Assembly (NCBI GenBank): GCA_020852295.1
Contig: JADZBC010000009.1
Span: 104,628 to 168,627, forward strand
Direction: 5' to 3'
Source: a bacterium
GTDB lineage: Bacteria; Patescibacteriota; Saccharimonadia; CAILAD01; JADZBC01
DNA length: 64,000 nucleotides
The notes below the pieces were generated by a model that saw only the letters and a list, made by a program, of their open reading frames with translations, was not told the DNA's origin and did not search any database. This document shows, piece after piece, positions 10,503 through 60,918 of this stretch (positions within the stretch are counted from its first letter, which is position 1; each line of letters begins with the position of its first letter). Made by a program: the position numbers and the translations under genes.

Positions 10503-10578
10503 GGGCCTGTAGCTCAGTGGTTAGAGCAGGCGGCTCATAACCGCTTGGTCGTTGGTTCGATCCCAACCAGGCCCACCA
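10503..10578 (+). tRNA. tRNA with CAT anticodon, most similar to tRNA-Ile2 (lysidine, k2CAU)
   Basis: 76-nt cloverleaf with anticodon loop cuCAUaa. Acceptor C4-G69/C5-G68. Anticodon arm is near-identical to E. coli ileX. Confidence 0.75.
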
Positions 10579-11182: not shown

Positions 11183-12049
11183 ATGAAAGTACGAAAAGCA
11201 ATTATCCCGGCAGCCGGTCTTGGTACCCGCTTCCTCCCGATGACTAAGGCGATGCCAAAAGAGATGTTGCCGATCATCGATAAGCCAGTTATTCAGTATG
11301 TCGTAGAGGAGGCGGTCGCGGCCGGCATCACCGACATTATTATTGTTACTGGGCAGCACAAGCGACCGGTCGAGGATCACTTCGACCACCAGTATGAGCT
11401 TGAGGCAAGCTTACGCGAAAAAGGTAAAGATGAGGTGGCTGACGAGCTAGCCCGCATCGCCGATATGGCCAATTTTATTTATGTTCGTCAAAAGGGCCAT
11501 TATGGTAACGGTACGCCGATCCTCAATGCGGCCCATCTAATTGGCGATGAGCCATTTCTCGTACTTTGGGCCGATGACTTTGTGCGTTCTACCGTGCCGC
11601 GCGCCAAGCAGCTGGTTGATGCCTATGAGCAGCTTCAGGCGCCCGTTATCTCACTCATCCCGATCAAGCCGTCTGATGCGAGCAAGTACGGCGTGCCAGC
11701 GATTCGCAGCAAGCGCGAGGCTGACCTTTTTGAGATCGAAAAACTCGTCGAGAAGCCAGGCGTTGATGAAGCGCCAAGTAAGTTTGGGTCGGTTGGTGGC
11801 TACATCCTCACGCCCGACATAATTCCACTACTAGAGGCACAGCATCCCGACAAGACCGGTGAAGTCTATCTGAGTACCGCGATTGACCAATTGGCCGCTA
11901 AGCGTCCGGTTTTTGGAAAGGTTATCGAAGGCACTTGGCATGATACTGGCAGTAAGACGACTTACCTGCAGGCCATTGTTGACGTTGCGCTCGAAGACAA
12001 GAAGATTGGGCCAGCCTTTCGCAAATATCTCGAAAATAAACTTAAATAA
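11183..12049 (+). CDS. galU: UTP--glucose-1-phosphate uridylyltransferase
   Basis: KAIIPAAGLGTRFLPMTKAMPKEMLPIIDKPVIQYVVEEA is the GalU signature. Confidence 0.85.
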   Translation: MKVRKAIIPAAGLGTRFLPMTKAMPKEMLPIIDKPVIQYVVEEAVAAGITDIIIVTGQHKRPVEDHFDHQYELEASLREKGKDEVADELARIADMANFIYVRQKGHYGNGTPILNAAHLIGDEPFLVLWADDFVRSTVPRAKQLVDAYEQLQAPVISLIPIKPSDASKYGVPAIRSKREADLFEIEKLVEKPGVDEAPSKFGSVGGYILTPDIIPLLEAQHPDKTGEVYLSTAIDQLAAKRPVFGKVIEGTWHDTGSKTTYLQAIVDVALEDKKIGPAFRKYLENKLK

Positions 12050-12150
12050 TTAGCACAAAGGGAAGCGGCTCGGTTGAGCCCCGCGAGTACGTCGTTGTAC
12101 CGCAGGACTCTTCCGAGCCGCGTGTGCCCATTCGGGCGGTTCCCCAGAGA

Positions 12151-13188
12151 TCAGGCCTCGTCGGCCTGTTGCCGGCGCGGCTTGCGCGCCAGCAGGATGG
12201 ACGATCCCGCCGCAAAGAGCAGCAGGCCGCCCGCCACCAGCCACGGCGTGTAGCTGTTGGGGCCGGTGCAGGCGAGCCCACGGGGTGGGCAGTCGCTGCT
12301 CGGCCTGTTGCCGGCTGAGCTGGGGGTGGTCGTGGTCACCGCCGGGGCGGTGGTCGACGTCGTGCTCGTGCTGGTCGTCGTGGTGACGATGTCGCTCGTG
12401 CACTTGCCGTCCAGTCCTGGCGTGATCGCCCCCGAAAGGGTGATCGTGCGTCCGTCCTCGGCTTGCGCCACCAGCTGGTAGCTCGTCACCGTGGTGGCGC
12501 CGGGCAGCTGGTAGTTGTGGGCTTCAGCCGTACCCTCGCGGAGGGAGAGTCCGGCAAGGCCGGGAAAGGTCGGTGAACTCGTCACCGTCCAGTTCACGTC
12601 GCCGTTGTTGGACGCCTCCACCCGGAGGGAGTACACACCGACCGTCTCGCACTTGGCGTAGGCCTGGGTCGAACCCAGCAGCTCCGTCGGTGGCTTGACG
12701 GTCGTGGTGGTCGTCTTCATGGTGGTGGTCGTGACCGGTGGCTTGCAGCCGGTGGCCTCGTAGACGGCTTCGCGGCTGTCGCCGCCATCGCCGTCCGTCC
12801 ACTCCATGTCGAAGAAGATCAACCCTTGGCCGACTGAAGTCTTGGCGAGCTTGAGGCTCGCGGACGCGGTCTGGCCGGGCTTGACCTCGCCGAGGTTCGC
12901 GTACACCGAGGTGTCGCGATCAACGGCCGAGACGTACATCGACCGATGGTCGTTGTTGGTGAAGGAGACCTTCACCACGACCGACTGACTGCCCTCGGGG
13001 CAGCTGGCCGACGCGCTGGTTTCCACCGTCCACGCGCCAGCCACTTGGGCCGTCGCGATGGTGAACAGGCAGCCGATGAGGGCCGCCACGAGAATACGCA
13101 ATTGGCGCATTTGAAAACTCAACTTTCTCTGGGGATGTGGGGAACACCGTGGTGCGGCCAGCCGAAGCGGCGCAAACACGGAAGGCAT
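12151..13188 (-). CDS. secreted, Thr-rich cell-wall-anchored surface protein with LAxTG-type sorting signal (high-GC, foreign)
   Basis: Signal peptide. Thr-rich linkers. C-terminal LACTG + hydrophobic stretch + RKPRRQQ tail. Local GC about 68% by eye, against about 50% background. Confidence 0.7.
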   Translation of the reverse strand: MPSVFAPLRLAAPRCSPHPQRKLSFQMRQLRILVAALIGCLFTIATAQVAGAWTVETSASASCPEGSQSVVVKVSFTNNDHRSMYVSAVDRDTSVYANLGEVKPGQTASASLKLAKTSVGQGLIFFDMEWTDGDGGDSREAVYEATGCKPPVTTTTMKTTTTTVKPPTELLGSTQAYAKCETVGVYSLRVEASNNGDVNWTVTSSPTFPGLAGLSLREGTAEAHNYQLPGATTVTSYQLVAQAEDGRTITLSGAITPGLDGKCTSDIVTTTTSTSTTSTTAPAVTTTTPSSAGNRPSSDCPPRGLACTGPNSYTPWLVAGGLLLFAAGSSILLARKPRRQQADEA

Positions 13189-13302
13189 AAGATACCATAA
13201 AATACAAAAAAAGTCAATATATTTCGCATCTAATGCTTAAGCTTGATCTGGAGGGGGAATTATTGTACTATAGCAATCCCGTTCCCAACCTGTGAGGTTA
13301 TC

Positions 13303-13848
13303 ATGAAGCTTTACCAGCAATGGTGCCGATTGCGCACCCGCCTGAAGCTGGGTCGCCGCCATGGCTTCCCGCCCGGACTCCAGAATGTGTCCACATCTCA
13401 GCCCGGCGAGTCGTTTCGCGCCCGCCCCAACTTCTACTGGTATCGAGCGATCGGATGGCCGAGCTACATGCCGGTCTATCCTCAGCCAGCGCTCGTTCGT
13501 GGTACCGCCATCACCGAAGGGTGGCCGTGCGAGTTTCGCAGCACGCGCTGGCGCGCCCGTTGGGCCGGCCCGTACTGTGTTGACTGCGACGACCCAGCAG
13601 GTGATTGGGTGCTCGTAGTCGGCCAGGTGCATGGTGAGTTGGTGCGCAACGAGCACAAGCTGGCGGATGGCACACATGAGTCGTCCGACATCTGGAACCG
13701 CATCAAGGCTCCAATCGAGAAGCTTCGGCCCGGTATTGATCCGGCCACGCTCAGGATCGATGCGACGGGCATGTTCGTCTACGGCTACGTGCCGGACCTC
13801 TGGTTCGGCAACACCGGCTGGCACGACATCCCAGACGAGGAAGGGTGA
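13303..13848 (+). CDS. hypothetical Trp/Arg-rich protein on the high-GC island
   Basis: Very high third-position GC in this frame, about 80% counted by hand. ATG at 13303 chosen over the upstream in-frame start; start uncertain. Confidence 0.45.
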   Translation: MKLYQQWCRLRTRLKLGRRHGFPPGLQNVSTSQPGESFRARPNFYWYRAIGWPSYMPVYPQPALVRGTAITEGWPCEFRSTRWRARWAGPYCVDCDDPAGDWVLVVGQVHGELVRNEHKLADGTHESSDIWNRIKAPIEKLRPGIDPATLRIDATGMFVYGYVPDLWFGNTGWHDIPDEEG

Positions 13849-13852
13849 ATCG

Positions 13853-13886
13853 CCCCGACAGGCTCCGCTTGTCGGGGTTTGTCGTT
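13853..13886 (+). terminator. hairpin ccccgac...gtcgggg + T-rich tail
   Basis: 7-bp GC stem immediately after the TGA of the island gene. Confidence 0.5.
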
Positions 13887-13932
13887 ATTGATGATTGCAC
13901 AATTTTCTCGGTAGTCGTAGGATAGATATGGT

Positions 13933-14697
13933 ATGGCAAAGAACGAAGCACTCATCAAGGTAAAGGACATCAAGAAATACTACGGCGATTTTGCCGCGGT
14001 TAAAGGTGTTAGCTTTGAAGTAAAGCCGGGTGAAGTTTTTGGCATTCTGGGGCCAAATGGTGCCGGTAAAACCACGACGCTCGAGATGATCGAGGGCTTA
14101 AAATCGATTGATGACGGTAAAGCCACGATCAACGGTCTTGATGTCGTCCGCGACCCCTATGGCGTCAAAGAAATTATTGGCGTACAGCTCCAGGCATCGG
14201 CTTTTTTCGATCATCTTTCACTAGTAGAGATACTGCATTTATTTTCAAACCTGTACGCCCAAAACAAAGATCCGCAAGAGCTTCTACGCGAAGTCGACCT
14301 GACCGAGAAGGCCAAGGCCTACGTCAAGAGCCTGTCGGGCGGGCAAAAGCAACGCTTTAGTATCGCTGCCGCGCTGGTCAATGACCCCGTTGCCTTGTTT
14401 CTTGATGAGCCAACAACTGGACTCGATCCGCAGGCGCGGCGCAACTTGTGGGATCTAGTTCAGGACATTCAGAAGTCCGGCAAGACGATCGTCATCACCA
14501 CGCACTATATGGAAGAAGCAGAAGTGCTCTGTGATCGGGTGGCAATTATGGATCACGGCGAGATTATTGCTCTGGATACCCCAAGTAAGCTCATTGATAA
14601 CTTGCTCAAAAAAGGCTTTAAGCCGAAGACGGAAGTAAAAAAGGCGACTCTTGAGGATGTATTTATTGATTTAACTGGGCATGAGTTGAGGGACTAA
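13933..14697 (+). CDS. ABC transporter ATP-binding protein
   Basis: Walker A GPNGAGKTT. LSGGQKQR signature. Walker B LFLDEPTTGLD. Confidence 0.85.
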   Translation: MAKNEALIKVKDIKKYYGDFAAVKGVSFEVKPGEVFGILGPNGAGKTTTLEMIEGLKSIDDGKATINGLDVVRDPYGVKEIIGVQLQASAFFDHLSLVEILHLFSNLYAQNKDPQELLREVDLTEKAKAYVKSLSGGQKQRFSIAAALVNDPVALFLDEPTTGLDPQARRNLWDLVQDIQKSGKTIVITTHYMEEAEVLCDRVAIMDHGEIIALDTPSKLIDNLLKKGFKPKTEVKKATLEDVFIDLTGHELRD

Positions 14698-15859: not shown

Positions 15860-17698
15860 ATGAAAAAAGCACTCGTCGTCCTAACACTCGTCAGTGCTTT
15901 TTTGTTGGCGCCATTTGGCGCGCAAGCTCGCACCATAAAGTCAGATCCTACACGCGAAAGCCTCACTAAGTTCAATAGCCAGATTGTGGTGGGCGACGAT
16001 GGCATGGCTGATGTGGTGGAAGAAATCACTTACGACATGGGCGGTGTTCAGCATCACGGCCTTGAACGAATCATACCGATTGTCCAATACATCAAAGATC
16101 CCTCGACAGGTGTCAAAAAATACCTCAATTATGACTTTAAATTTTTAGAGGCCGCCGAAGATGGTAATGCGAATGCACCGTACACCGTCAGCGGAAAAGA
16201 GAATGGCCAGGTAATAGTTGTGCGAATAGGTGATGCCAATGTGACGAAGACAGGCATTCACACCTACCGACTACGCTATAGCTTTGGACCAATCACACGC
16301 CGCGACAATGTGGCGGACTATATCAGCTACAACATCGTCGGTTTTGATTGGCCAATTCCGGTGCGGGAAGTTACTGCCACGATGACACTCCAGAAGCCGC
16401 CGATTCTCAGCCAGACCTATTGCTACACCGGAACATCTGGATCAAAAGCTTCTGACTGTTCGGTGGATATTCTTGGCAATACTGTCCGCGTAGAGTCTCG
16501 CTCACCACTCGCCATCGGCGAAACTATCAGCATGGAAGTCGACTATCCGGTCGGAACATTTGCTAACGTATTGGGGCTCGCTGAACAACCGAGTGCAAAA
16601 TATGCCGACACCGATACCTCGGGTGGCGATTTAGGCAGTATGAAAACGGTACTTTGGTTTATGCTTATTTTCTTCATTATGCTCGTTATCGGCTTGATTC
16701 GATTCGTTGTGAGTAAGTTTCGGGAGTGGACCTACAAAAGAAAACAGACAGTGATCGCGCACTACGAATCACCCGACAAGCTGAAGCCTGCCGAGATTGG
16801 TTTACTGTCGGATAAAGCCGCCGGCAATAGGGAGCTGACGGCGACATTGGTTGATATCGCAATACGTGGCTATATTCGTATTCGTGAAATCAAGCCTAAG
16901 TCCTTCTGGTCTGGTGCTCAGTATGAATTTGAGATTCTCAAAGACCTGACCGGGCTAGAAAAATATGAGCTCAGCGTTTTGAGTCTTGTTTTCGTCAAAA
17001 CACCACTAGCCAATGGTTCAAAAGCAGTCCTGAAGCGTGAAGCGAACTATGCGCGCGAGGGAATTCTTAAGACCATCAATGAAGAGCTCAAAGACCGACT
17101 TGAGCAAAAAGGATATTTTTTACCACGTAAGTTCTGGAAGAAGCAACAAAAAGCTGCCGGAAAAATACATCCAAGAACTATGACGATCATTACGATAGTA
17201 GGCACCATTGGGCTATTTATTGGACTTATTATTTACCTCAATGGCAATTTTAGAATCGCCGAGATGTTGCTATATTTTGGCATTGCAGCTATGGCGCTGT
17301 TTTTCATGCGTCCAGCGCGCTACACCAAGCTCGGGTATGAACAATGGGCAAAGGTAAAAGGATTTGAACAGTTCATGACGGTCACTGAAAAGGATCGAAT
17401 GAAATTTGAAAATGCGCCTGAAAAAACCCCAGCGTTGTTTAATAAGCTATTGCCATATGCCATTGCCCTTGGTGTGGAGAAAAAGTGGGCCAATCAGTTT
17501 GCCGATATCTCGCTGACCGCAGCGCAGACTGGTTGGTACGTGGGATCGACACCATATCTCAACTCAACAATGCTCGCCAACGATCTCAATAGTAGCTTTG
17601 TGTCATCGATGTCTTCGACGATGGGTACCTCAGGCTCCTCGATGAGCGGTGGCGGTGGCGCCGGTGGTGCTGGCGGTGGTGGTGGCGGCGGCTGGTAG
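15860..17698 (+). CDS. DUF2207-family membrane protein with poly-Gly C-terminus
   Basis: Signal peptide. Extracellular domain. Central TM segments. C-terminal GGGGAGGAGGGGGGGW typical of DUF2207. Confidence 0.65.
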   Translation: MKKALVVLTLVSAFLLAPFGAQARTIKSDPTRESLTKFNSQIVVGDDGMADVVEEITYDMGGVQHHGLERIIPIVQYIKDPSTGVKKYLNYDFKFLEAAEDGNANAPYTVSGKENGQVIVVRIGDANVTKTGIHTYRLRYSFGPITRRDNVADYISYNIVGFDWPIPVREVTATMTLQKPPILSQTYCYTGTSGSKASDCSVDILGNTVRVESRSPLAIGETISMEVDYPVGTFANVLGLAEQPSAKYADTDTSGGDLGSMKTVLWFMLIFFIMLVIGLIRFVVSKFREWTYKRKQTVIAHYESPDKLKPAEIGLLSDKAAGNRELTATLVDIAIRGYIRIREIKPKSFWSGAQYEFEILKDLTGLEKYELSVLSLVFVKTPLANGSKAVLKREANYAREGILKTINEELKDRLEQKGYFLPRKFWKKQQKAAGKIHPRTMTIITIVGTIGLFIGLIIYLNGNFRIAEMLLYFGIAAMALFFMRPARYTKLGYEQWAKVKGFEQFMTVTEKDRMKFENAPEKTPALFNKLLPYAIALGVEKKWANQFADISLTAAQTGWYVGSTPYLNSTMLANDLNSSFVSSMSSTMGTSGSSMSGGGGAGGAGGGGGGGW

Positions 17699-38404: not shown

Positions 38405-38959
38405 ATGACCGAATTGCGCGATTACTTCGCGTACGGCTCCAACAACGACGCGCAGATGCTGGAGCGCCTCGGTCGACTGCCGTCCAAGGCGGTTGGCTTC
38501 GCCGAGCTGCATGGCTTTCGACCCGCCTTCATGGGTCGGAGCGTCAAGCGGTTCTGTGCCACGCTCACCGCCGTTCACACCGGCGACTTCGCCGATCGCG
38601 TGTTCGGCACGCTGTACCTCGACCTGACGGAAGAGGAGTTCGCCATCCTCGACCGCAAGGAAGGGGTGAAGTACGACGATCAGGGCAAGCCGACGGGCCG
38701 CTACATGCGGATCAGCCGACCGGTGACGATCAACGAAGGCGAGACCGCCGATCGTCAGGCTGAGCTCTACGTGATGACCGGCAACCTGCAGGTCGATCGC
38801 GAGGAGCGTGCGCCCAGCACGGACTACCTCTACAACGTCCTACAGGCCGCCTTCACGGCGGGCATGCCCGACTGGTACATCAAGAAGTACCTCATGGTGC
38901 CCACCGAGAACGTCGTGCGCCACGAGCGCATGCCGATCGACGACTGGCAGCCCGCCTGA
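38405..38959 (+). CDS. gamma-glutamylcyclotransferase (AIG2/GGCT-like), high-GC foreign gene
   Basis: N-terminal YFAYGSN motif. GC about 65% by eye with strong GC3 bias. Confidence 0.65.
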   Translation: MTELRDYFAYGSNNDAQMLERLGRLPSKAVGFAELHGFRPAFMGRSVKRFCATLTAVHTGDFADRVFGTLYLDLTEEEFAILDRKEGVKYDDQGKPTGRYMRISRPVTINEGETADRQAELYVMTGNLQVDREERAPSTDYLYNVLQAAFTAGMPDWYIKKYLMVPTENVVRHERMPIDDWQPA

Positions 38960-53012: not shown

Positions 53013-54287
53013 ATGGAAGAGCTTAATAGCTGGCAGAAGAAAGCAAGACGATTTCTTAGACGACTTGGTCCTGGTCTCGTAACCGGTGCAGCCGACGACG
53101 ATCCGTCGGGTATAGGTACTTATTCGCAGACCGGTGCGCAATATGGTTTTAAGCTCAACTGGAGCATGCTCTTTATGCTGCCCCTTATGGTATCTGTCCA
53201 GGAGATGGCTGGACGAGTTGGGCTTGTCACCGGCAAGGGCTTGGCTCGAATCATCAAAGACCACTACAACATCTGGATTCTTTATCTGATGGTGTTCTTT
53301 TTGGTCTTCGCAAACGTGGTCAATATCGGTGCTGATATTGGGGCAATGGCGGCTTCAGCTCAGCTTCTCATACCCTTGCCGTTTGTTTTTTGGACACTAT
53401 TCTTCACGATAGGCATTGTGATCCTAGAGATAGTTATTCCGTATAAGCAGTATGCCAAGATACTCAAGTGGCTGACACTATCACTGTTTGCATACATCAT
53501 CACCGCTGCAATTGTGCAGATGCCGTGGGGCGAAGTGTTGCATAATATGGTGGTGCCACACATTCAGCTGACTCCCGAGTATATTGTTCTGTTTGTTGCG
53601 TTGCTTGGTACAACTATCTCGCCATATCTCTTCTTCTGGGAGCCAAGCCAGGAGGTTGAGGAGGAGATCGAGCATCGTTGGCTCAAAAAGTCTGGTGGCG
53701 AACCTCAGGTAACTGCTCATCGTCTGGCACGCTTCCGACAAGACAACGCGATTGGTATGGTTTTTTCGCAAATCGTTGCTTTTTTCATCATGATTGTCGC
53801 TGCAGCCACTCTCAATAAAAATGGTATTGTCGATATCGCTTCGGCCGATCAAGCGGCCAAAGCACTTGAGCCGTTGGCGGGTGAGTTTGCGAAGGTGATT
53901 TTTGCGGTTGGAGTAATTGGAACAGGGCTACTTGCCATTCCGGTTTTAGCTGGGTCGGCCGCCTATGCATTGAGTGAGGCGCTTGATATCAAGGAGGGTC
54001 TTTATCAGAAAGTACACCGAGCGAGAGGTTTTTACGCCATCATCGCTGGCGCAACGATATCTGGACTTCTCATCAACTTCGTCGGAATTGACCCAATCAA
54101 GGCACTGGTCTATGCGGCGGTCATCAATGGTGTTCTGGCAGTTCCGCTGATCTTTATGATTATTCGTATTAGCAACAACCCCGATGTAATGGGCGACTAC
54201 AAGAGCGGTCGACTGGTGAACTTCTTTGGGGTAATCGCTCTTATTACAATGGCACTCGCCAGTCTGGCGATGATTTTTATTCGCTAG
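53013..54287 (+). CDS. mntH: NRAMP-family divalent metal (Mn2+/Fe2+) transporter
   Basis: GPGLVTGAADDDPSGIGTYSQTGAQYGF motif and 11 TM segments. Confidence 0.85.
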   Translation: MEELNSWQKKARRFLRRLGPGLVTGAADDDPSGIGTYSQTGAQYGFKLNWSMLFMLPLMVSVQEMAGRVGLVTGKGLARIIKDHYNIWILYLMVFFLVFANVVNIGADIGAMAASAQLLIPLPFVFWTLFFTIGIVILEIVIPYKQYAKILKWLTLSLFAYIITAAIVQMPWGEVLHNMVVPHIQLTPEYIVLFVALLGTTISPYLFFWEPSQEVEEEIEHRWLKKSGGEPQVTAHRLARFRQDNAIGMVFSQIVAFFIMIVAAATLNKNGIVDIASADQAAKALEPLAGEFAKVIFAVGVIGTGLLAIPVLAGSAAYALSEALDIKEGLYQKVHRARGFYAIIAGATISGLLINFVGIDPIKALVYAAVINGVLAVPLIFMIIRISNNPDVMGDYKSGRLVNFFGVIALITMALASLAMIFIR

Positions 54288-54747
54288 TGATAGCTAGAAT
54301 AGTAAGCTGACGCTCCCGGTCCGCAATATTTGCCGTAACGGTGTCGCCGGTCTTTTTGTCCAGTAATGCGTCTGCAATCGGCGAGACGTAGGAGACGACC
54401 ATAGGGTCTGTATTATAGCTCCGGTAGCTACCGATCGTGATCGTAATCGGCGATCCGCCATCTATCTCGTAAGTAACACGCGAGCCAATCTGCACCTTGT
54501 TTGATTTCTGCTTGGGGGTAACTATCTTCGCGTGTCTGAGGATCTGCTCTTTGTCTCGCAGGTGGGTCATATACAGATCGTGACGGCGCATCAGCTCTTC
54601 ATGCTCGATGTTGTCATGCCATGTTTCAGATCCTTGTGAAGTGCTGGCGCCAACCTGGGCCTTGATGTCGCGGATCTGGCCTTTGAGCTTAGTAATCTCC
54701 GCGAGCGATGCGTCATAGTCTGACTGTAGAAAAAAATATATGATCAT
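54277..54747 (-). CDS. greA: transcription elongation factor GreA-like
   Basis: N-terminal coiled coil and C-terminal FKBP-like domain. Start trimmed so it does not read through tRNA-His. Confidence 0.65.
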   Translation of the reverse strand: MIIYFFLQSDYDASLAEITKLKGQIRDIKAQVGASTSQGSETWHDNIEHEELMRRHDLYMTHLRDKEQILRHAKIVTPKQKSNKVQIGSRVTYEIDGGSPITITIGSYRSYNTDPMVVSYVSPIADALLDKKTGDTVTANIADRERQLTILAITSE

Positions 54748-54750
54748 CAA

Positions 54751-54828
54751 ATAGTAAATGGGGCGAATGATGGGGCTCGAACCCACGGCCTACGGGACCA
54801 CAACCCGTCGCTCTAACCAACTGAGCTA
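54751..54828 (-). tRNA. tRNA-His (GTG) with encoded G-1
   Basis: Anticodon loop uuGUGgu. Extra 5' G. CCA encoded. Confidence 0.9.
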
Positions 54829-54887
54829 CATCCGCCATGTCGTCACAGGAAAAAATTATATCATCAAAGTACCAATCTGAACAGATA

Positions 54888-54970: not shown

Positions 54971-55495
54971 CTAATTACTATATAGAATTTTGCGTAAAAA
55001 CTCGAGCAGAGCGCTATTGTAGTGACTAAAGCGTATTACATCTGTAGCGCGGCTACGGCGGTACTCACACGTTGAGTAGCTACCACTATATCTCCCGGTA
55101 TGTATTGCGTAGTCTGTATCAATACCATCGACTTCACTTTTGCAATTCTGTAGTTTTTCATTGGTGTCGGCCGGTTGGACTGTTAGCTCTTTGAGCTTTG
55201 AGAGGTCGGTGGCATCAAGCTGGCTAGCTTTGGTGGTTTTTTGGTTGATGAGCAAATAGTCACCGTTGGTGTAGATGGTGAGTTGAGAGCATTTTTTCTC
55301 GGCGCCATCAGCGCAGCCACCGACGTCTTTTGTGGTGATCAACTTGTCTTGTGAAGTGATCTTGGTTGCAGCCTTGTTGACCACGTTGAAGATGAGGCTA
55401 TAAACGGCAAACGCTCCAGCAGCCAGTGAGGCAATCGCCAAGATTACAAATATGATTGCGGTATTGCGATGGTGGTGTGGAGACGAATTTGTCAT
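54971..55495 (-). CDS. hypothetical membrane-anchored protein
   Basis: His-rich N-terminus, one TM, Cys-containing extracellular domain. Lies between tRNA genes. Confidence 0.4.
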   Translation of the reverse strand: MTNSSPHHHRNTAIIFVILAIASLAAGAFAVYSLIFNVVNKAATKITSQDKLITTKDVGGCADGAEKKCSQLTIYTNGDYLLINQKTTKASQLDATDLSKLKELTVQPADTNEKLQNCKSEVDGIDTDYAIHTGRYSGSYSTCEYRRSRATDVIRFSHYNSALLEFLRKILYSN

Positions 55496-55500
55496 ATTTC

Positions 55501-55575
55501 TTGGAGCGGGTAGCGGGAATCAAACCCGCATCGCCTGCTTGGAAGGCAGGAATAATAATCTTTATACCATACCCG
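55501..55575 (-). tRNA. tRNA-Gly (TCC)
   Basis: 75 nt. Anticodon loop cuUCCaa at standard positions. GC-rich T-arm. A/U-rich D-arm without G18G19. Confidence 0.8.
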
Positions 55576-55678
55576 CATGGTTTTGTAGGTACTATTATAA
55601 ACCATTGAAAATACTACCATATTATTATATAATCAGCAAATCGCTATACACTCGACAACCCCCGGAAGGGAGCACGCG

Positions 55679-56341
55679 ATGGCGAAGAACCGTGACAAGA
55701 AGAAGGGCAGCAAGAAGCCCCAGATGAAGGCCGCCACGCCGGTCAAGTCGGGCAAGAAGAAGCCAGGGAAGGGCAAGCACGCCCACAAGAAGGTTGCTGC
55801 GATCATCGACTCGCACGACCAGAGCAAGATGGTGGTGGCTCGAGATGAGCTCAACGTTGCGATCGCGGCGTTGTCGCTCAGCAAGCCGCTGGCGGTGCTG
55901 GGTCTGAAGCCGCGCATCATGGCCATCTTCTCGAAGCTGGGTGTGGAGACGATCGGTCAGCTACTCGCCTTCCCGGACGAGACCTGGCGCCATCGCGGCA
56001 TCGGCTACGTGTCGCTGCGCGAGATCGATCGGGCATTGCGCCCGTTGGGCCTCGAGCTTGATCATCAGCCGGCGTCCGGCTACCACCTCACCACATCGAG
56101 ACTTACGCTCGAAGACCTCAGTGTCGTCGTTCCGCGAGTGGTTCGGGGTGGTGACAGTTCCGTGATCTGCTGCATCGAGCTGCAGAAGCGGTTCGGCGTG
56201 GTGACGGTCGCCGATCTGCTGGCGCTCGATGATCAGACCATCAGAGCCAGCCTGCCAGACAACGAGGAGTTGCCCATCTTCATGGAGGCAGTCGGTGAGC
56301 TGAGGGAGGCTCAGCGCCGCCTCGAAGCGTCGGCGGACTGA
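55679..56341 (+). CDS. high-GC foreign gene: Lys-rich N-terminal tail + two RpoA-alphaCTD-like helix-hairpin-helix modules
   Basis: GC about 65% by eye. LGLKPRIMAIFSKLGVETIGQLL and IELQKRFGVVTVADLL resemble alpha-CTD HhH motifs. Confidence 0.45.
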   Translation: MAKNRDKKKGSKKPQMKAATPVKSGKKKPGKGKHAHKKVAAIIDSHDQSKMVVARDELNVAIAALSLSKPLAVLGLKPRIMAIFSKLGVETIGQLLAFPDETWRHRGIGYVSLREIDRALRPLGLELDHQPASGYHLTTSRLTLEDLSVVVPRVVRGGDSSVICCIELQKRFGVVTVADLLALDDQTIRASLPDNEELPIFMEAVGELREAQRRLEASAD

Positions 56342-56362
56342 CCAGCTCACAGTCACGGTCGA

Positions 56363-56400
56363 AGGCAGGGTGGGTGTTCAACGAAGAACACTCACCCTGC
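56363..56400. terminator. bidirectional terminator hairpin between convergent genes
   Basis: 15-bp stem ggcagggtgggtgtt/aacactcaccctgcc. Followed by T-run on +. Confidence 0.6.
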
Positions 56401-56406
56401 CGCAGG

Positions 56407-56901
56407 CTACTTTATTTTTCGAGACTTCTCGCTCAAGAAAGTGTCGAGCACGCAGAGCACAAAGAAGTAAACTCCCGAGGCCAAGATGGCGTGGTCGAGG
56501 TCAAATAGATACAGACTGAGCCCAGCTATTACATAGAGACTCGCTACCGAAAGGTAGTATTTTTTTTGCTCAAGCCAGCCGGTCAGAACATAGCCGCCGG
56601 CACACATGTAGAACCAGCCATGCAGCATACCAGTGAGCAGTCGGAATATTCCGGAGTATTCGAGATAGGTTAAGATACTGCCCCCAACGACAATGCTGAT
56701 CCATAGCCACTGGATCCAGCGATCCGTTTTTGTGCGCGTGCCGCCGAGTAGATATTGGACCATGATGCCGACCAGGCCGACACTGAGCCAGCTTGCGAGT
56801 AGCCAACCGGGGCTATCGAGATAATAAAAGCTGGTAAGGTAACCAGCCAAAATCAATACGCCCCATACGATCATGATCTTTTGATAGAGGCGCTTTTGCA
56901 T
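56407..56901 (-). CDS. hypothetical polytopic membrane protein
   Basis: Five TM segments. Confidence 0.4.
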   Translation of the reverse strand: MQKRLYQKIMIVWGVLILAGYLTSFYYLDSPGWLLASWLSVGLVGIMVQYLLGGTRTKTDRWIQWLWISIVVGGSILTYLEYSGIFRLLTGMLHGWFYMCAGGYVLTGWLEQKKYYLSVASLYVIAGLSLYLFDLDHAILASGVYFFVLCVLDTFLSEKSRKIK

Positions 56902-58809: not shown

Positions 58810-60178
58810 GTGGTATGGGTGCTGCAGGGGATACAATTGTACATAAGTACTATGAACGTATCTCCGTACATCCAGAAAAAACTCGGCTGGCCAATGATTA
58901 TTGGTGCTGCCTTTGTGGTGCCCACAATACTGTGGCTAACCATACACCCGGTCGGTGACGTGGTGAGTTCATGGACGAGCTTAGCCTATGGGCTCGGCAG
59001 GTTATTTGGCATATGGGGTGTTTGTCTGTATGCCATCAATCTAGTAATGTCTGCTCGTTGGCGTTGGCTTGAGCCATGGTTTGGAGGGCTCAATCGTGTC
59101 TACATTGCCCATCACACGACCGGTGGCATAGCGCTGGTCTTGCTGCTCTTTCATCCTGTTTTTCTGGCATTACAAAAACTAGCTATCTCCGCCTTCACTG
59201 CGGCCCGCTTCTTGTTGCCTGGCTATAGTTTTGCGACTGATCTTGGTTTAATCGCATTGTTTGGGATGGTCTTCTTGCTCTTTCTTACTTTTTACACCAA
59301 GCTCCCATATGAGATTTGGAAATTCAGCCACAAATTCCTAGGAGTTTTCTTTGGTGTGAGCGGGCTTCACATCCTACTGATTGAATCAGGTGACATGGAG
59401 AGCTCAATCTTACTCAAAGCCTACGTACTTGCCATTATGGCAGCAGGGGCATTTGCCTATACTTATCGAACATTGCTACCAAAAATATTTTGTTCGAACC
59501 TACGAGTATGAGGTGGAGGGGGTCCGCCAGCCATGGAAAGAGGTGATTGAGATGACACTCAAGCCCAAGAATCAGCTCATGAACTTCCAGCCTGGTCAGT
59601 TCGTGTTTGTGTCGTTTACTGATTCGCAATTGGTAGCGCGGGAATCACATCCATTTTCGATTGTGTCTGCTCCAAAGGATGGGCGGCTCATTTTGACAGC
59701 CAAGACGCTCGGCGACTACACGGCCAGCCTGATCAAACTTAAGTCGGGTACAACTGCCAAGATCGAGGGTGCTTTTGGTAAGTTCTCCTACATCAATTTT
59801 AAAAACAATGACCAGATATAGATCGCGGGTGGTATCGGAATCACGCCATTTGTCTCAATGGCGCGCTCACTCGAGATGACGCCAGACTGCAAGGTCGATA
59901 TGTTTTATAGCTGCAAAACAGAGCCAGAGCTGATCTACCTCGATGTCATACGTCAAACTGTCGAAACACACAACAAAAACTTCCGGATTTTCCCCTGGAC
60001 AGCCGATAAGATGGGCATGATTACCGCTGACAAGATCAAGCAAAAAGTTGGCGATGTTAAGGGTAAAGACATCTTTTTGTGTGGACCACCACCAATGATG
60101 AAGGCACTCCGTGAGCAGTTTATCAAGCTGGGTGTGCCAAATGACCATATTCATAGTGAGGAGTTTTCAACCAAATGA
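58810..60178 (+). pseudogene. ferric-reductase-like flavocytochrome (TM heme domain + FAD-binding + NAD-binding) disrupted by a frameshift near 59490 and an in-frame TAG at 59819
   Basis: Three consecutive ORFs encode the TM His domain, the FAD domain (HPFSIVSAP) and the NAD domain (IAGGIGITP). Frame 1 to frame 2 switch at an AAAAATATTTT run. TAG directly before GGIGITP. Confidence 0.6.
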
Positions 60179-60918
60179 AAATCAAGCTCAACACCAGGTT
60201 CTTTACTACGGTCGGCTTTGTACTTGCTCTCGTCATCGCGCTTCTCGTCATCGCGATAGGCTTACTTGGCTCCACGCGAGGGGTGCCCAATTGGCAAATC
60301 TTGCTCAACAAATGGAAGGGCGTCGCCACAACTTACCGTACCGGACCAACCGGTAGCGAGAGCTCAGATGCGACTACTTCGCTGGATACAACCGACCCGA
60401 CGATAGATGGCAGTAACGGCGACACAAGCCCAGACCAATCTACACCAAACAACGGCGGTGGCGGTACCGATACCAATACGCCCGGTAGTGGTGGCTCTGG
60501 AGGTAGAGGATCGGCCACCCCAAAGCCGAGTAGCTCTACAACTACTCCACCGTCATCGGGTGGGGGTGCGAGTACGCCAAAGCCAACGGGCAACTCGACT
60601 CCACAACCAACGCCTGCGCCAACTCCAACGCCGACCCCTGCACCAGCTTGCTCGGCCGGAGGATCGTGTACGGCAGCGCAGGTTGCTACCCACAACACTC
60701 AGGGCAATTGCTGGGTGATCTATGGATCGAAAGTTTATAATGTGACTGGTTACGTTGGGCAACACCCCCCTGGACCAAGCTATTTCAACTCATCTGTTTG
60801 CGGTAAAGACGTATCAAGTTTTCTCGGCGGCAGCTCATCGGTCAATGGCAACCGACATCGTCACTCCAACAGTGCTTATTCGATTCTCAATAGCTATTGG
60901 TATGCAAATCTCATATAA
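60175..60918 (+). CDS. membrane-anchored Ser/Thr/Pro-rich protein with C-terminal cytochrome b5-like heme-binding domain
   Basis: N-terminal TM. Low-complexity linker. HNTQGNCWVIYGSKVYNVTGYVGQHPPGPS resembles the cyt b5 motif (HxxxxDCWxxIxGxVYDVTxFxxxHPGG). Confidence 0.55.
   Translation: MKIKLNTRFFTTVGFVLALVIALLVIAIGLLGSTRGVPNWQILLNKWKGVATTYRTGPTGSESSDATTSLDTTDPTIDGSNGDTSPDQSTPNNGGGGTDTNTPGSGGSGGRGSATPKPSSSTTTPPSSGGGASTPKPTGNSTPQPTPAPTPTPTPAPACSAGGSCTAAQVATHNTQGNCWVIYGSKVYNVTGYVGQHPPGPSYFNSSVCGKDVSSFLGGSSSVNGNRHRHSNSAYSILNSYWYANLI

Follow-up and report, generated by a model that had tools for sequence, protein, structure and literature searches.

The C-terminal domain of the RNA polymerase (RNAP) alpha subunit (alpha-CTD; PF03118; Protein Data Bank (PDB) IDs 1doq, 1lb2, and 5tw1) is a fold of two helix-hairpin-helix (HhH) motifs, written (HhH)2, and domains like it are already known outside RpoA. 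The protein of interest here, 220 aa and 24 kDa, is the product of the open reading frame (ORF) 55679..56341 (+) in a 64,000-nt stretch of the Saccharibacteria contig JADZBC010000009.1; the whole stretch is referred to as the window and the ORF as the target gene. Its domain 1 has the same (HhH)2 fold as alpha-CTD, a profile similarity of E = 5.9e-5, and equivalents of R265, G296, and S299. Unlike alpha-CTD, it is free-standing, falls below the Pfam cut-off, has lost N268, C269, K298, and the 261 determinant, and has a polylysine tail added before it and a degenerate half-copy after it. It is this architecture, in a narrow Saccharibacteria clade, that is new. We favor, at somewhat better than even confidence, the reading that the target encodes an acquired, fast-evolving, clade-restricted accessory DNA-binding protein of a Saccharibacteria lineage.

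As judged by sequence, the closest annotated analogues of the target are the small alpha-CTD "DNA binding proteins" of actinobacteriophages. Gp26 of Microbacterium phage Mazun, which carries that annotation, has 141 aa, scores 50.5 bits against PF03118, and is 36% identical to domain 1. Fold matches in BFVD include proteins of Mycobacterium phage Mithril and Rhodococcus phage Finch that are annotated as alpha-CTD-containing. Like the target, the phage proteins are small with one alpha-CTD-like domain, and Mazun gp26 has GC-rich codon usage of the target's type, with a GC content at third codon positions (GC3) of 0.77. They differ in being without the lysine tail or a second module, and the similarity is confined to about 75 residues; the target, moreover, is chromosomal, with no prophage around it. 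We found no paper on what these phage proteins do. In sequence, domain 1 is closest to metagenomic proteins with tandem alpha-CTD repeats (P0003-P0053), with E values down to 4e-11 in 1.84 billion proteins, but none has the full target architecture, and their richest 38-residue window holds 14 Lys plus Arg residues versus 16 in the target and is never N-terminal.

A further match is to the NCBIfam model of PglW, the BREX type-2 kinase, at E = 4e-6 over model positions 784-869 of 1403. PglW has been described as containing a NERD nuclease, tandem kinase modules, a triad of winged helix-turn-helix (wHTH) domains, and an iSTAND domain, with the region matched here described as alpha-CTD-like (PMC12839542). 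Its nuclease, kinase, wHTH, and iSTAND domains are all missing from the 220-aa target, and there are no BREX or other defense genes among the target's neighbors. A role in a defense system was considered and ruled out, since only the alpha-CTD-like region of PglW matches. Apart from that domain description, a literature search on free-standing alpha-CTD proteins, PF03118, Saccharibacteria nucleoid proteins, and Saccharibacteria GC-rich islands gave nothing directly relevant.

Lysine-rich tails are known in mycobacterial HupB/Hlp, chlamydial Hc1/Hc2, Pseudomonas AlgP, and eukaryotic histone H1. The target resembles these in joining a cationic, low-complexity, disordered segment to a folded DNA-binding domain, which in the target is putative, and differs in having no PAKKA/KPAA-type repeats, no HU or winged-helix H1 globular domain, and a tail that is N-terminal. 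No homology to these proteins was detected in Pfam, NCBIfam, or PDB searches. A preliminary description of this DNA, made from its letters, had quoted the tail sequence exactly and called it histone-H1-like, which is apt as to composition only: neither Pfam nor NCBIfam gives a linker-histone globular-domain match, and the tail-coding DNA has no regular repeat array, the repeat finder giving one 20-nt direct repeat in two copies (D6, 80% identical). The Lys-rich tail is kept in a 29%-identical orthologue from the related locus L065, which is described below.

The assignment of domain 1 starts from a sole Pfam match of the target, to RNA_pol_A_CTD (PF03118) over residues 66-120 with 17.1 bits. 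The 84%-identical orthologue has no PF03118 match in the same kind of scan. Along with the middle of PglW, NCBIfam matches the C-terminal ends of rpoA models (the last ~90 positions, far below cut-off), and the PDB sequence search finds the Thermus alpha-CTD at E = 0.0065. A phmmer search with residues 39-220 against 1.84 billion representatives returned one full-length relative and 51 domain-level matches, all 51 falling on query positions ~26-92 (protein residues ~64-130). The matches scanned with Pfam bear bona fide PF03118 in 16 of 16 cases, mostly as several tandem copies, and several PF03118 relatives of domain 1 are fused to sigma-70 region 4 and one to a TPR. When a three-orthologue profile (A10) is compared with the RpoA CTDs in the PDB, the E values are 5.9e-5 for M. 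smegmatis, 1.3e-4 for M. tuberculosis, 5.3e-4 for Streptomyces, and 1.3e-3 for Thermus. The fold search with the structure model likewise matches alpha-CTD entries, including PDB IDs 9zum and 1lb2. Domain 1 is, on these profile matches and the predicted fold, an alpha-CTD-type domain, in agreement with the preliminary description. The N-terminal dimerization and assembly domain of RpoA and its linker are not present, residues 1-66 being the Lys tail plus one helix.

Mapping onto E. coli alpha, with the E. coli sequence verified against the PDB, places R265 at R79, G296 at G109, and S299 at S112. The sigma-contact 261 determinant is lost, with D259 replaced by V73 and E261 by G75. As to the activator-contact 287 determinant, the mapping covered T285-L289 and not 315-318, and the T285-L289 stretch aligns with AFPDET-WR with no evident conservation.

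Domain 2 had also been put forward as an alpha-CTD-like HhH module, and here the support extends to its first HhH. A 19-residue internal repeat aligns KLGVETIGQLLAFPDETWR of domain 1 with RFGVVTVADLLALDDQTIR of domain 2 at E = 2e-4. Domain 2 is without the second Gly hairpin, has no Pfam match, and scores only 3.8 bits with a custom alpha-CTD hidden Markov model. The hhalign probability against the alpha-CTD profile is 26.6%, or 61% (E = 7.9e-5) with the distant orthologue added, in an alignment that spans 25 columns only, which is the first HhH. This pattern makes "degenerate half-copy" the best description of domain 2. The structure model is an AlphaFold2 prediction from a 17-sequence alignment; an earlier model from 3 near-identical sequences was poor, with a predicted local distance difference test (pLDDT) score of 55.5, and the fold searches used the 17-sequence model only. 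By part, pLDDT is 70-89 in domain 1, 59-78 in domain 2, and below 50 in the tail and linker.

On the DNA-binding reading, the cationic tail would supply electrostatic affinity of a non-specific kind, and domain 1 would touch the minor groove and backbone in the manner of alpha-CTD on AT-rich UP elements, probably with a preference for AT-rich, UP-element-like DNA. The acidic domain 2 may be for partner contact or self-regulation, and the protein as a whole would act like a nucleoid-associated protein or a modulator of transcription close to promoters. Several observations count against this reading. Outside the tail, the protein is acidic with a pI of 5.3. The PF03118 gathering cut-off of 23.8 bits is missed by the target and also by the L065 orthologue alone at 22.3 bits. 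With a mean pLDDT of 58.7, confidence in the structure model is no more than moderate, and the alignment behind it is enriched in alpha-CTD proteins. The fold class is SAM-like, which is also used for protein-protein contacts. Of the DNA-contact residues, N268 is replaced by A82, C269 by I83, and K298 by V111, and the R265 equivalent R79 is Thr in the L065 orthologue, with basic residues shifted nearby. Concerning the acquired origin, no donor homologue was found in the searches, and a GC-rich source is indicated by composition and weak similarity only.

Some of these points would suit a protein- or RNA-binding adaptor, in which the SAM-like domains bind proteins and the Lys tail binds RNA, ribosomes, or an acidic partner, namely the acidity of the folded part, that of domain 2 in particular, and the only partial retention of the DNA-contact residues. 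We nevertheless rate the adaptor as unlikely, given that the top sequence and fold matches are consistently to alpha-CTD and not to SAM, and that the closest relatives carry either a sigma-70 region 4 fusion or a DNA-binding annotation. Quite unlikely is a decoy directed at RNAP, the "anti-alpha" factor of the preliminary description, whose free domain would compete with alpha-CTD for UP elements, sigma region 4, or activators, thereby reprogramming transcription. It would make use of the alpha-CTD fold and the three retained equivalents in the window protein, and there is a parallel in that phages, which often redirect host RNAP, encode small free-standing alpha-CTD proteins. However, the 261 determinant has become V73/G75, the T285-L289 stretch lacks evident conservation, the distant orthologue lacks the key Arg, and without an alpha N-terminal domain or linker the protein cannot join the polymerase as alpha does. 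That part of the decoy proposal which concerns UP-element competition is a special case of the favored DNA-binding reading and is inseparable from it here.

The target product is 100% identical to NCBI MCC7289080.1, annotated as "hypothetical protein IT414_01665 [bacterium]". Features of the gene and its surroundings are listed in Table 1. As had been noted from the letters, the ORF lies beside the 5' end of tRNA-Gly(TCC), which faces it across a gap of 102 bp by ARAGORN. The promoter-like site and Shine-Dalgarno sequence sit within AT-rich DNA, and the promoter-site DNA is native-like. In the related locus L001 the promoter-like site is identical, in L065 it reads TTGCTA-17-TATAGT, and the Shine-Dalgarno-like GGAAGGGAG is unchanged in both.

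At the gene end, a hairpin with arms at 56364-56379 and 56386-56401 has a 16-bp stem including one G.U pair and a 6-nt loop. Its 91-nt context has a folding energy of -42.6 kcal/mol (z = -6.4), and it is flanked by the convergent stops of the target (56339-56341) and of the 164-aa membrane-protein gene (56407-56409). The T-run after it is on the + strand only. Both L001 and L065 keep the hairpin, with 2 pairs changed in a compensatory way and 4 changes compatible with wobble pairing; the L065 version retains 16 pairs, and its 4 non-compensatory changes pair (as G.U) only in + strand RNA. Because the T-run and the pairing-preserving changes work only on the + strand, the comparison favors a + strand terminator, with bidirectional use possible by position. 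The 15-bp bidirectional hairpin of the preliminary description is thus retained as a hairpin and amended in stem length and likely direction. All three orthologues, at 99%, 84%, and 29% identity, have an intact reading frame. Misassembly is ruled out by the same context in independent assemblies (ENA contigs and a 383,787-bp contig of an NCBI metagenome-assembled genome (MAG)). With a promoter, a Shine-Dalgarno sequence, and a covarying terminator, the target is a real gene that is predicted to be expressed.

Table 1. Coordinates in the window of the target gene, the parts of its product, and adjacent features
Feature	Position	Strand	Remarks
tRNA-Gly(TCC)	55502..55576	-	ARAGORN; Rfam 60.2 bits; 97% identical in L065
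Sigma-70-type promoter-like site, TTGAAA-17-TATAAT	55605..55633	+	11/12 matches
Shine-Dalgarno-like GGAAGGGAG	55664..55672	+	6 nt ahead of ATG; read directly from the sequence
Target coding sequence, complete	55679..56341	+	220 aa plus stop; GC 62.4%, GC3 0.82
Residues 1-38, polycationic predicted-disordered tail	55679..55792	+	15 K, 1 R, net +15; pLDDT < 50
Residues 39-66, predicted long helix before domain 1	55793..55876	+	Model helix H33-66, pLDDT ~50-57, low confidence
Domain 1, RNAP alpha-CTD-type (HhH)2, residues 67-130 (about 65-130)	55877..56068	+	Profile matches, transitive homology, fold search
Residues 131-164, variable predicted-disordered linker	56069..56170	+	Fastest-evolving part, dN 0.29; pLDDT < 50
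Domain 2, residues 165-220	56171..56338	+	Acidic (net -6), four-helical; first HhH RFGVVTVADLLALDDQTIR recognizably alpha-CTD-like
Hairpin, GC-rich, followed by T-run	56364..56401	+	Likely intrinsic terminator between convergent genes
Membrane-protein gene, 164 aa	56407..56901	-	Ordinary GC; shares the clade-specific slot with the target

The L065 locus was reached by way of homologues of the 164-aa neighbor (73-74% identity), and the orthologue is the 232-aa gene between that neighbor and tRNA-Gly. It starts with MAKNRDKKKGGKKP, the first 14 residues matching the target bar one, and has a Lys-rich tail, an alpha-CTD-like motif, and a second HhH motif. Overall identity is 29% (BLASTP E = 2e-10) where the flanking genes have 73% and 48%, and synonymous sites in those flanking genes are saturated between the window and L065 (pS 0.84-0.87). 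Nucleotide identity between the two is 97% in tRNA-Gly, 82% from promoter to Shine-Dalgarno, 93% in codons 1-14, 56% in the next 80 nt of coding sequence, 40% at the coding sequence end, and 71% in the 3' untranslated region with the hairpin. The leader plus first 14 codons (window 55638..55720; L065 1348..1461 (-)) is at 82-93%, versus ~40-56% for the coding sequence bodies. In a predicted leader hairpin, TCGCTA is paired with TGGCGA of the start-codon region, and since the hairpin is invariant there is no covariation signal either way. Between the target and the 84% orthologue, dS is 0.21, similar to the flanks, with dN/dS = 0.37 overall, 0.22 for residues 1-130, and 0.51 for residues 131-220. 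Since the gene is syntenic in lineages whose flanking synonymous sites are saturated, it is not a recent arrival; it is, from this comparison, old within the clade and retained, and its protein evidently diverges far faster than its neighbors.

For the flanking RNase Y, the nearest GTDB species are Saccharibacteria MAGs at just 80% identity. The target has homologues in two clusters only (99% and 84% identity) among 5.8 billion clustered proteins, and in one 50% cluster among the 1.84 billion representatives. Both clusters have the same gene order, GreA - tRNA-His - tRNA-Arg - 174-aa gene - tRNA-Gly - target - 164-aa gene - 125-aa gene - PMT. In the sister genera L004, L006, and L010, the order is GreA - tRNA-His - tRNA-Arg - tRNA-Gly - ~150 bp - a homologue of the 125-aa gene (p125), with PMT next in L010, and neither the target nor the 164-aa gene is at their tRNA-Gly locus. 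In L011, a 38%-GC Saccharibacteria relative, the slot at tRNA-Gly holds an unrelated 271-aa gene of 52-60% GC (16010..16825 (-)) and a 238-aa membrane protein (16920..17636 (-)). tRNA-Gly(TCC) marks a variable slot, and because this is empty in L004, L006, and L010 and has different GC-rich cargo in L011, it is, on comparative grounds, a hotspot for gene gain. The target is probably clade-restricted and accessory, not a core gene universal to its lineage.

Two signs of horizontal acquisition are found together in the target, atypical composition and an empty site in relatives, and the preliminary view of it as a foreign-looking gene is upheld. It would have entered the slot between tRNA-Gly and the downstream gene in the clade ancestor, from a high-GC source, and by analogy an actinobacterial or actinophage-like source would fit. 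Its earlier placement on a mobile cassette, on the other hand, is unsupported. No integrase or transposase families are found within about -6.7/+10 kb of the target on the syntenic contig, and no att-like repeats near tRNA-Gly or the target were found by the repeat finder. The target is on the 5' side of the tRNA, not the 3' side expected of a tRNA-associated integrative element. With the whole protein, tblastn against phages and plasmids gives nothing at E <= 0.01, and IMG/VR gives nothing; JGI metagenome contigs have no whole-protein match and two weak domain-level matches only, and PHROGs has no meaningful match. Intergenic alignment with the sister genera gave no clear insertion boundaries.

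Other features of the tRNA genes can be mentioned here. The 174-aa gene (54971..55495 (-)) between tRNA-Arg and tRNA-Gly encodes a membrane-anchored protein and has ordinary GC; in the sister genera tRNA-Arg and tRNA-Gly are separated by 23-316 bp with no gene between, which makes it a second clade-specific gain at the cluster. The longest ORF for GreA (54277..54786 (-), GTG start, 169 aa) overlaps tRNA-His (54759..54835 (-)) by 28 nt, and, judging from the 156-aa product called in one assembly, translation probably starts further downstream. Within 10 kb elsewhere in the window, there are three tRNA genes with a CAT anticodon, at 10503, 18159, and 20345 (+), presumably the initiator, the elongator Met, and the lysidine-modified Ile.

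The composition of the target is the remaining matter. Its GC of 62.4% compares with a window mean of 50.2% (z = 3.5, 663-bp windows), and 300-bp windows peak at 64%; the gene is GC-rich as had been described, if a little below the ~65% given. GC at the three codon positions is 0.64, 0.41, and 0.82, while GC3 in native genes is ~0.45-0.60, so that the excess is concentrated at third positions. All 20 of its 20 Lys codons are AAG and 12 of 12 Ile codons are ATC, versus native genes in which AAA makes up 47% of Lys codons and ATT plus ATA 52% of Ile codons. Nor is it alone in the window, in that the same GC-rich codon usage is found at 12151..13848 and 38405..38959.

The first of these places is part of the GC-richest island of the window (11581..14100, up to 69% GC), where the ORFs 12151..13188 (-) and 13243..13848 (+) have GC3 of 0.85 and 0.74 with AAG/ATC-only usage like the target; neither has a Pfam match, and the second, of 201 aa, is annotated as hypothetical protein IT414_01400. 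The other (38405..38959 (+)) is an AIG2-like (PF13772) gene of 184 aa with GC3 0.87, about 225 bp upstream of tRNA-Lys (39185). This gene is also an orphan, with no homologues beyond those at 99% and 77% identity. In L068 (2771..3328), the 77% orthologue is in synteny and has GC3 0.83, and the genes flanking it there have GC3 of 0.39-0.52 and saturated synonymous sites, whereas the AIG2-like gene's own pS is 0.44. A separate local rise of GC to 0.60 is at 60175..60918 (+), a cytochrome-b5-domain protein with an unusually high GC at second positions of 0.62; it adjoins ferric-reductase-like genes, a gene set uncommon for Saccharibacteria.

Across the orphan cohort, GC3 is 0.74-0.87 (0.82-0.87 in the two genes tracked across lineages), AAG usage is 100%, and ATC usage is 83-100%. 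Ordinary translational selection as the cause was ruled out by DnaK and HU, native genes expected to be highly expressed, which have GC3 of only 0.51-0.57. The L065 orthologue of the target has GC 61%, GC3 0.82, AAG in 23/23, and ATC in 13/13, amid 43%-GC flanks. Because it keeps GC3 at 0.82 while the synonymous sites of the flanks are saturated, GC-richness appears to be held in place, and we infer that the target's codon usage is actively maintained and is not a relic of fresh transfer.

Fast divergence and composition could also be combined into a host-directed effector, in which the epibiont delivers the protein to a high-GC actinobacterial host and the protein there either binds to the DNA of that host or imitates its alpha-CTD, with an arms race explaining the rate of evolution. 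In keeping with this, identity to the L065 orthologue is 29% against 48-73% for flanking genes, codon usage is actinobacteria-like, and the top PDB profile matches are actinobacterial RpoA CTDs. We judge it very unlikely, with no signal peptide and no secretion-system neighbor, codon usage that acts where the gene is translated, i.e., in the epibiont, and a preference for actinobacterial RpoA of only a few bits. A highly speculative extension, to which we give hardly any credence, is that the whole GC-rich orphan cohort is tied to the parasite-host interface, with the target an effector acting on host promoters or an alpha-CTD mimic redirecting host transcription, and with a signal for regulation or export in the conserved leader and the first 14 codons. 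The poorest account, that of a functionless passenger decaying after horizontal transfer, has the orphan distribution, the foreign composition, and the relaxed constraint of the C-terminal half to commend it, and is largely refuted by the intact frame with dN/dS < 1 in every region, by syntenic retention across lineages with saturated synonymous divergence, by conservation of the promoter, the leader, and a terminator that shows compensatory changes, and by a composition that has not ameliorated.

The distant L065 orthologue, at 29% identity, was recovered by synteny, after sequence searches of billions of proteins had missed it. That syntenic orphans keep extreme GC3 across saturated lineages is at odds with taking a GC island to be a recent, ameliorating transfer. 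The persistence of GC-rich usage points to selection specific to these genes, or to a mechanism of some kind that acts at synonymous sites. If DNA binding is true, the combination of polylysine tail, alpha-CTD module, and degenerate HhH would be a new chromatin or transcription accessory architecture, and an alpha-CTD would be at work away from RNA polymerase, in a bacterium that is ultra-small, epibiotic, and poor in regulators.

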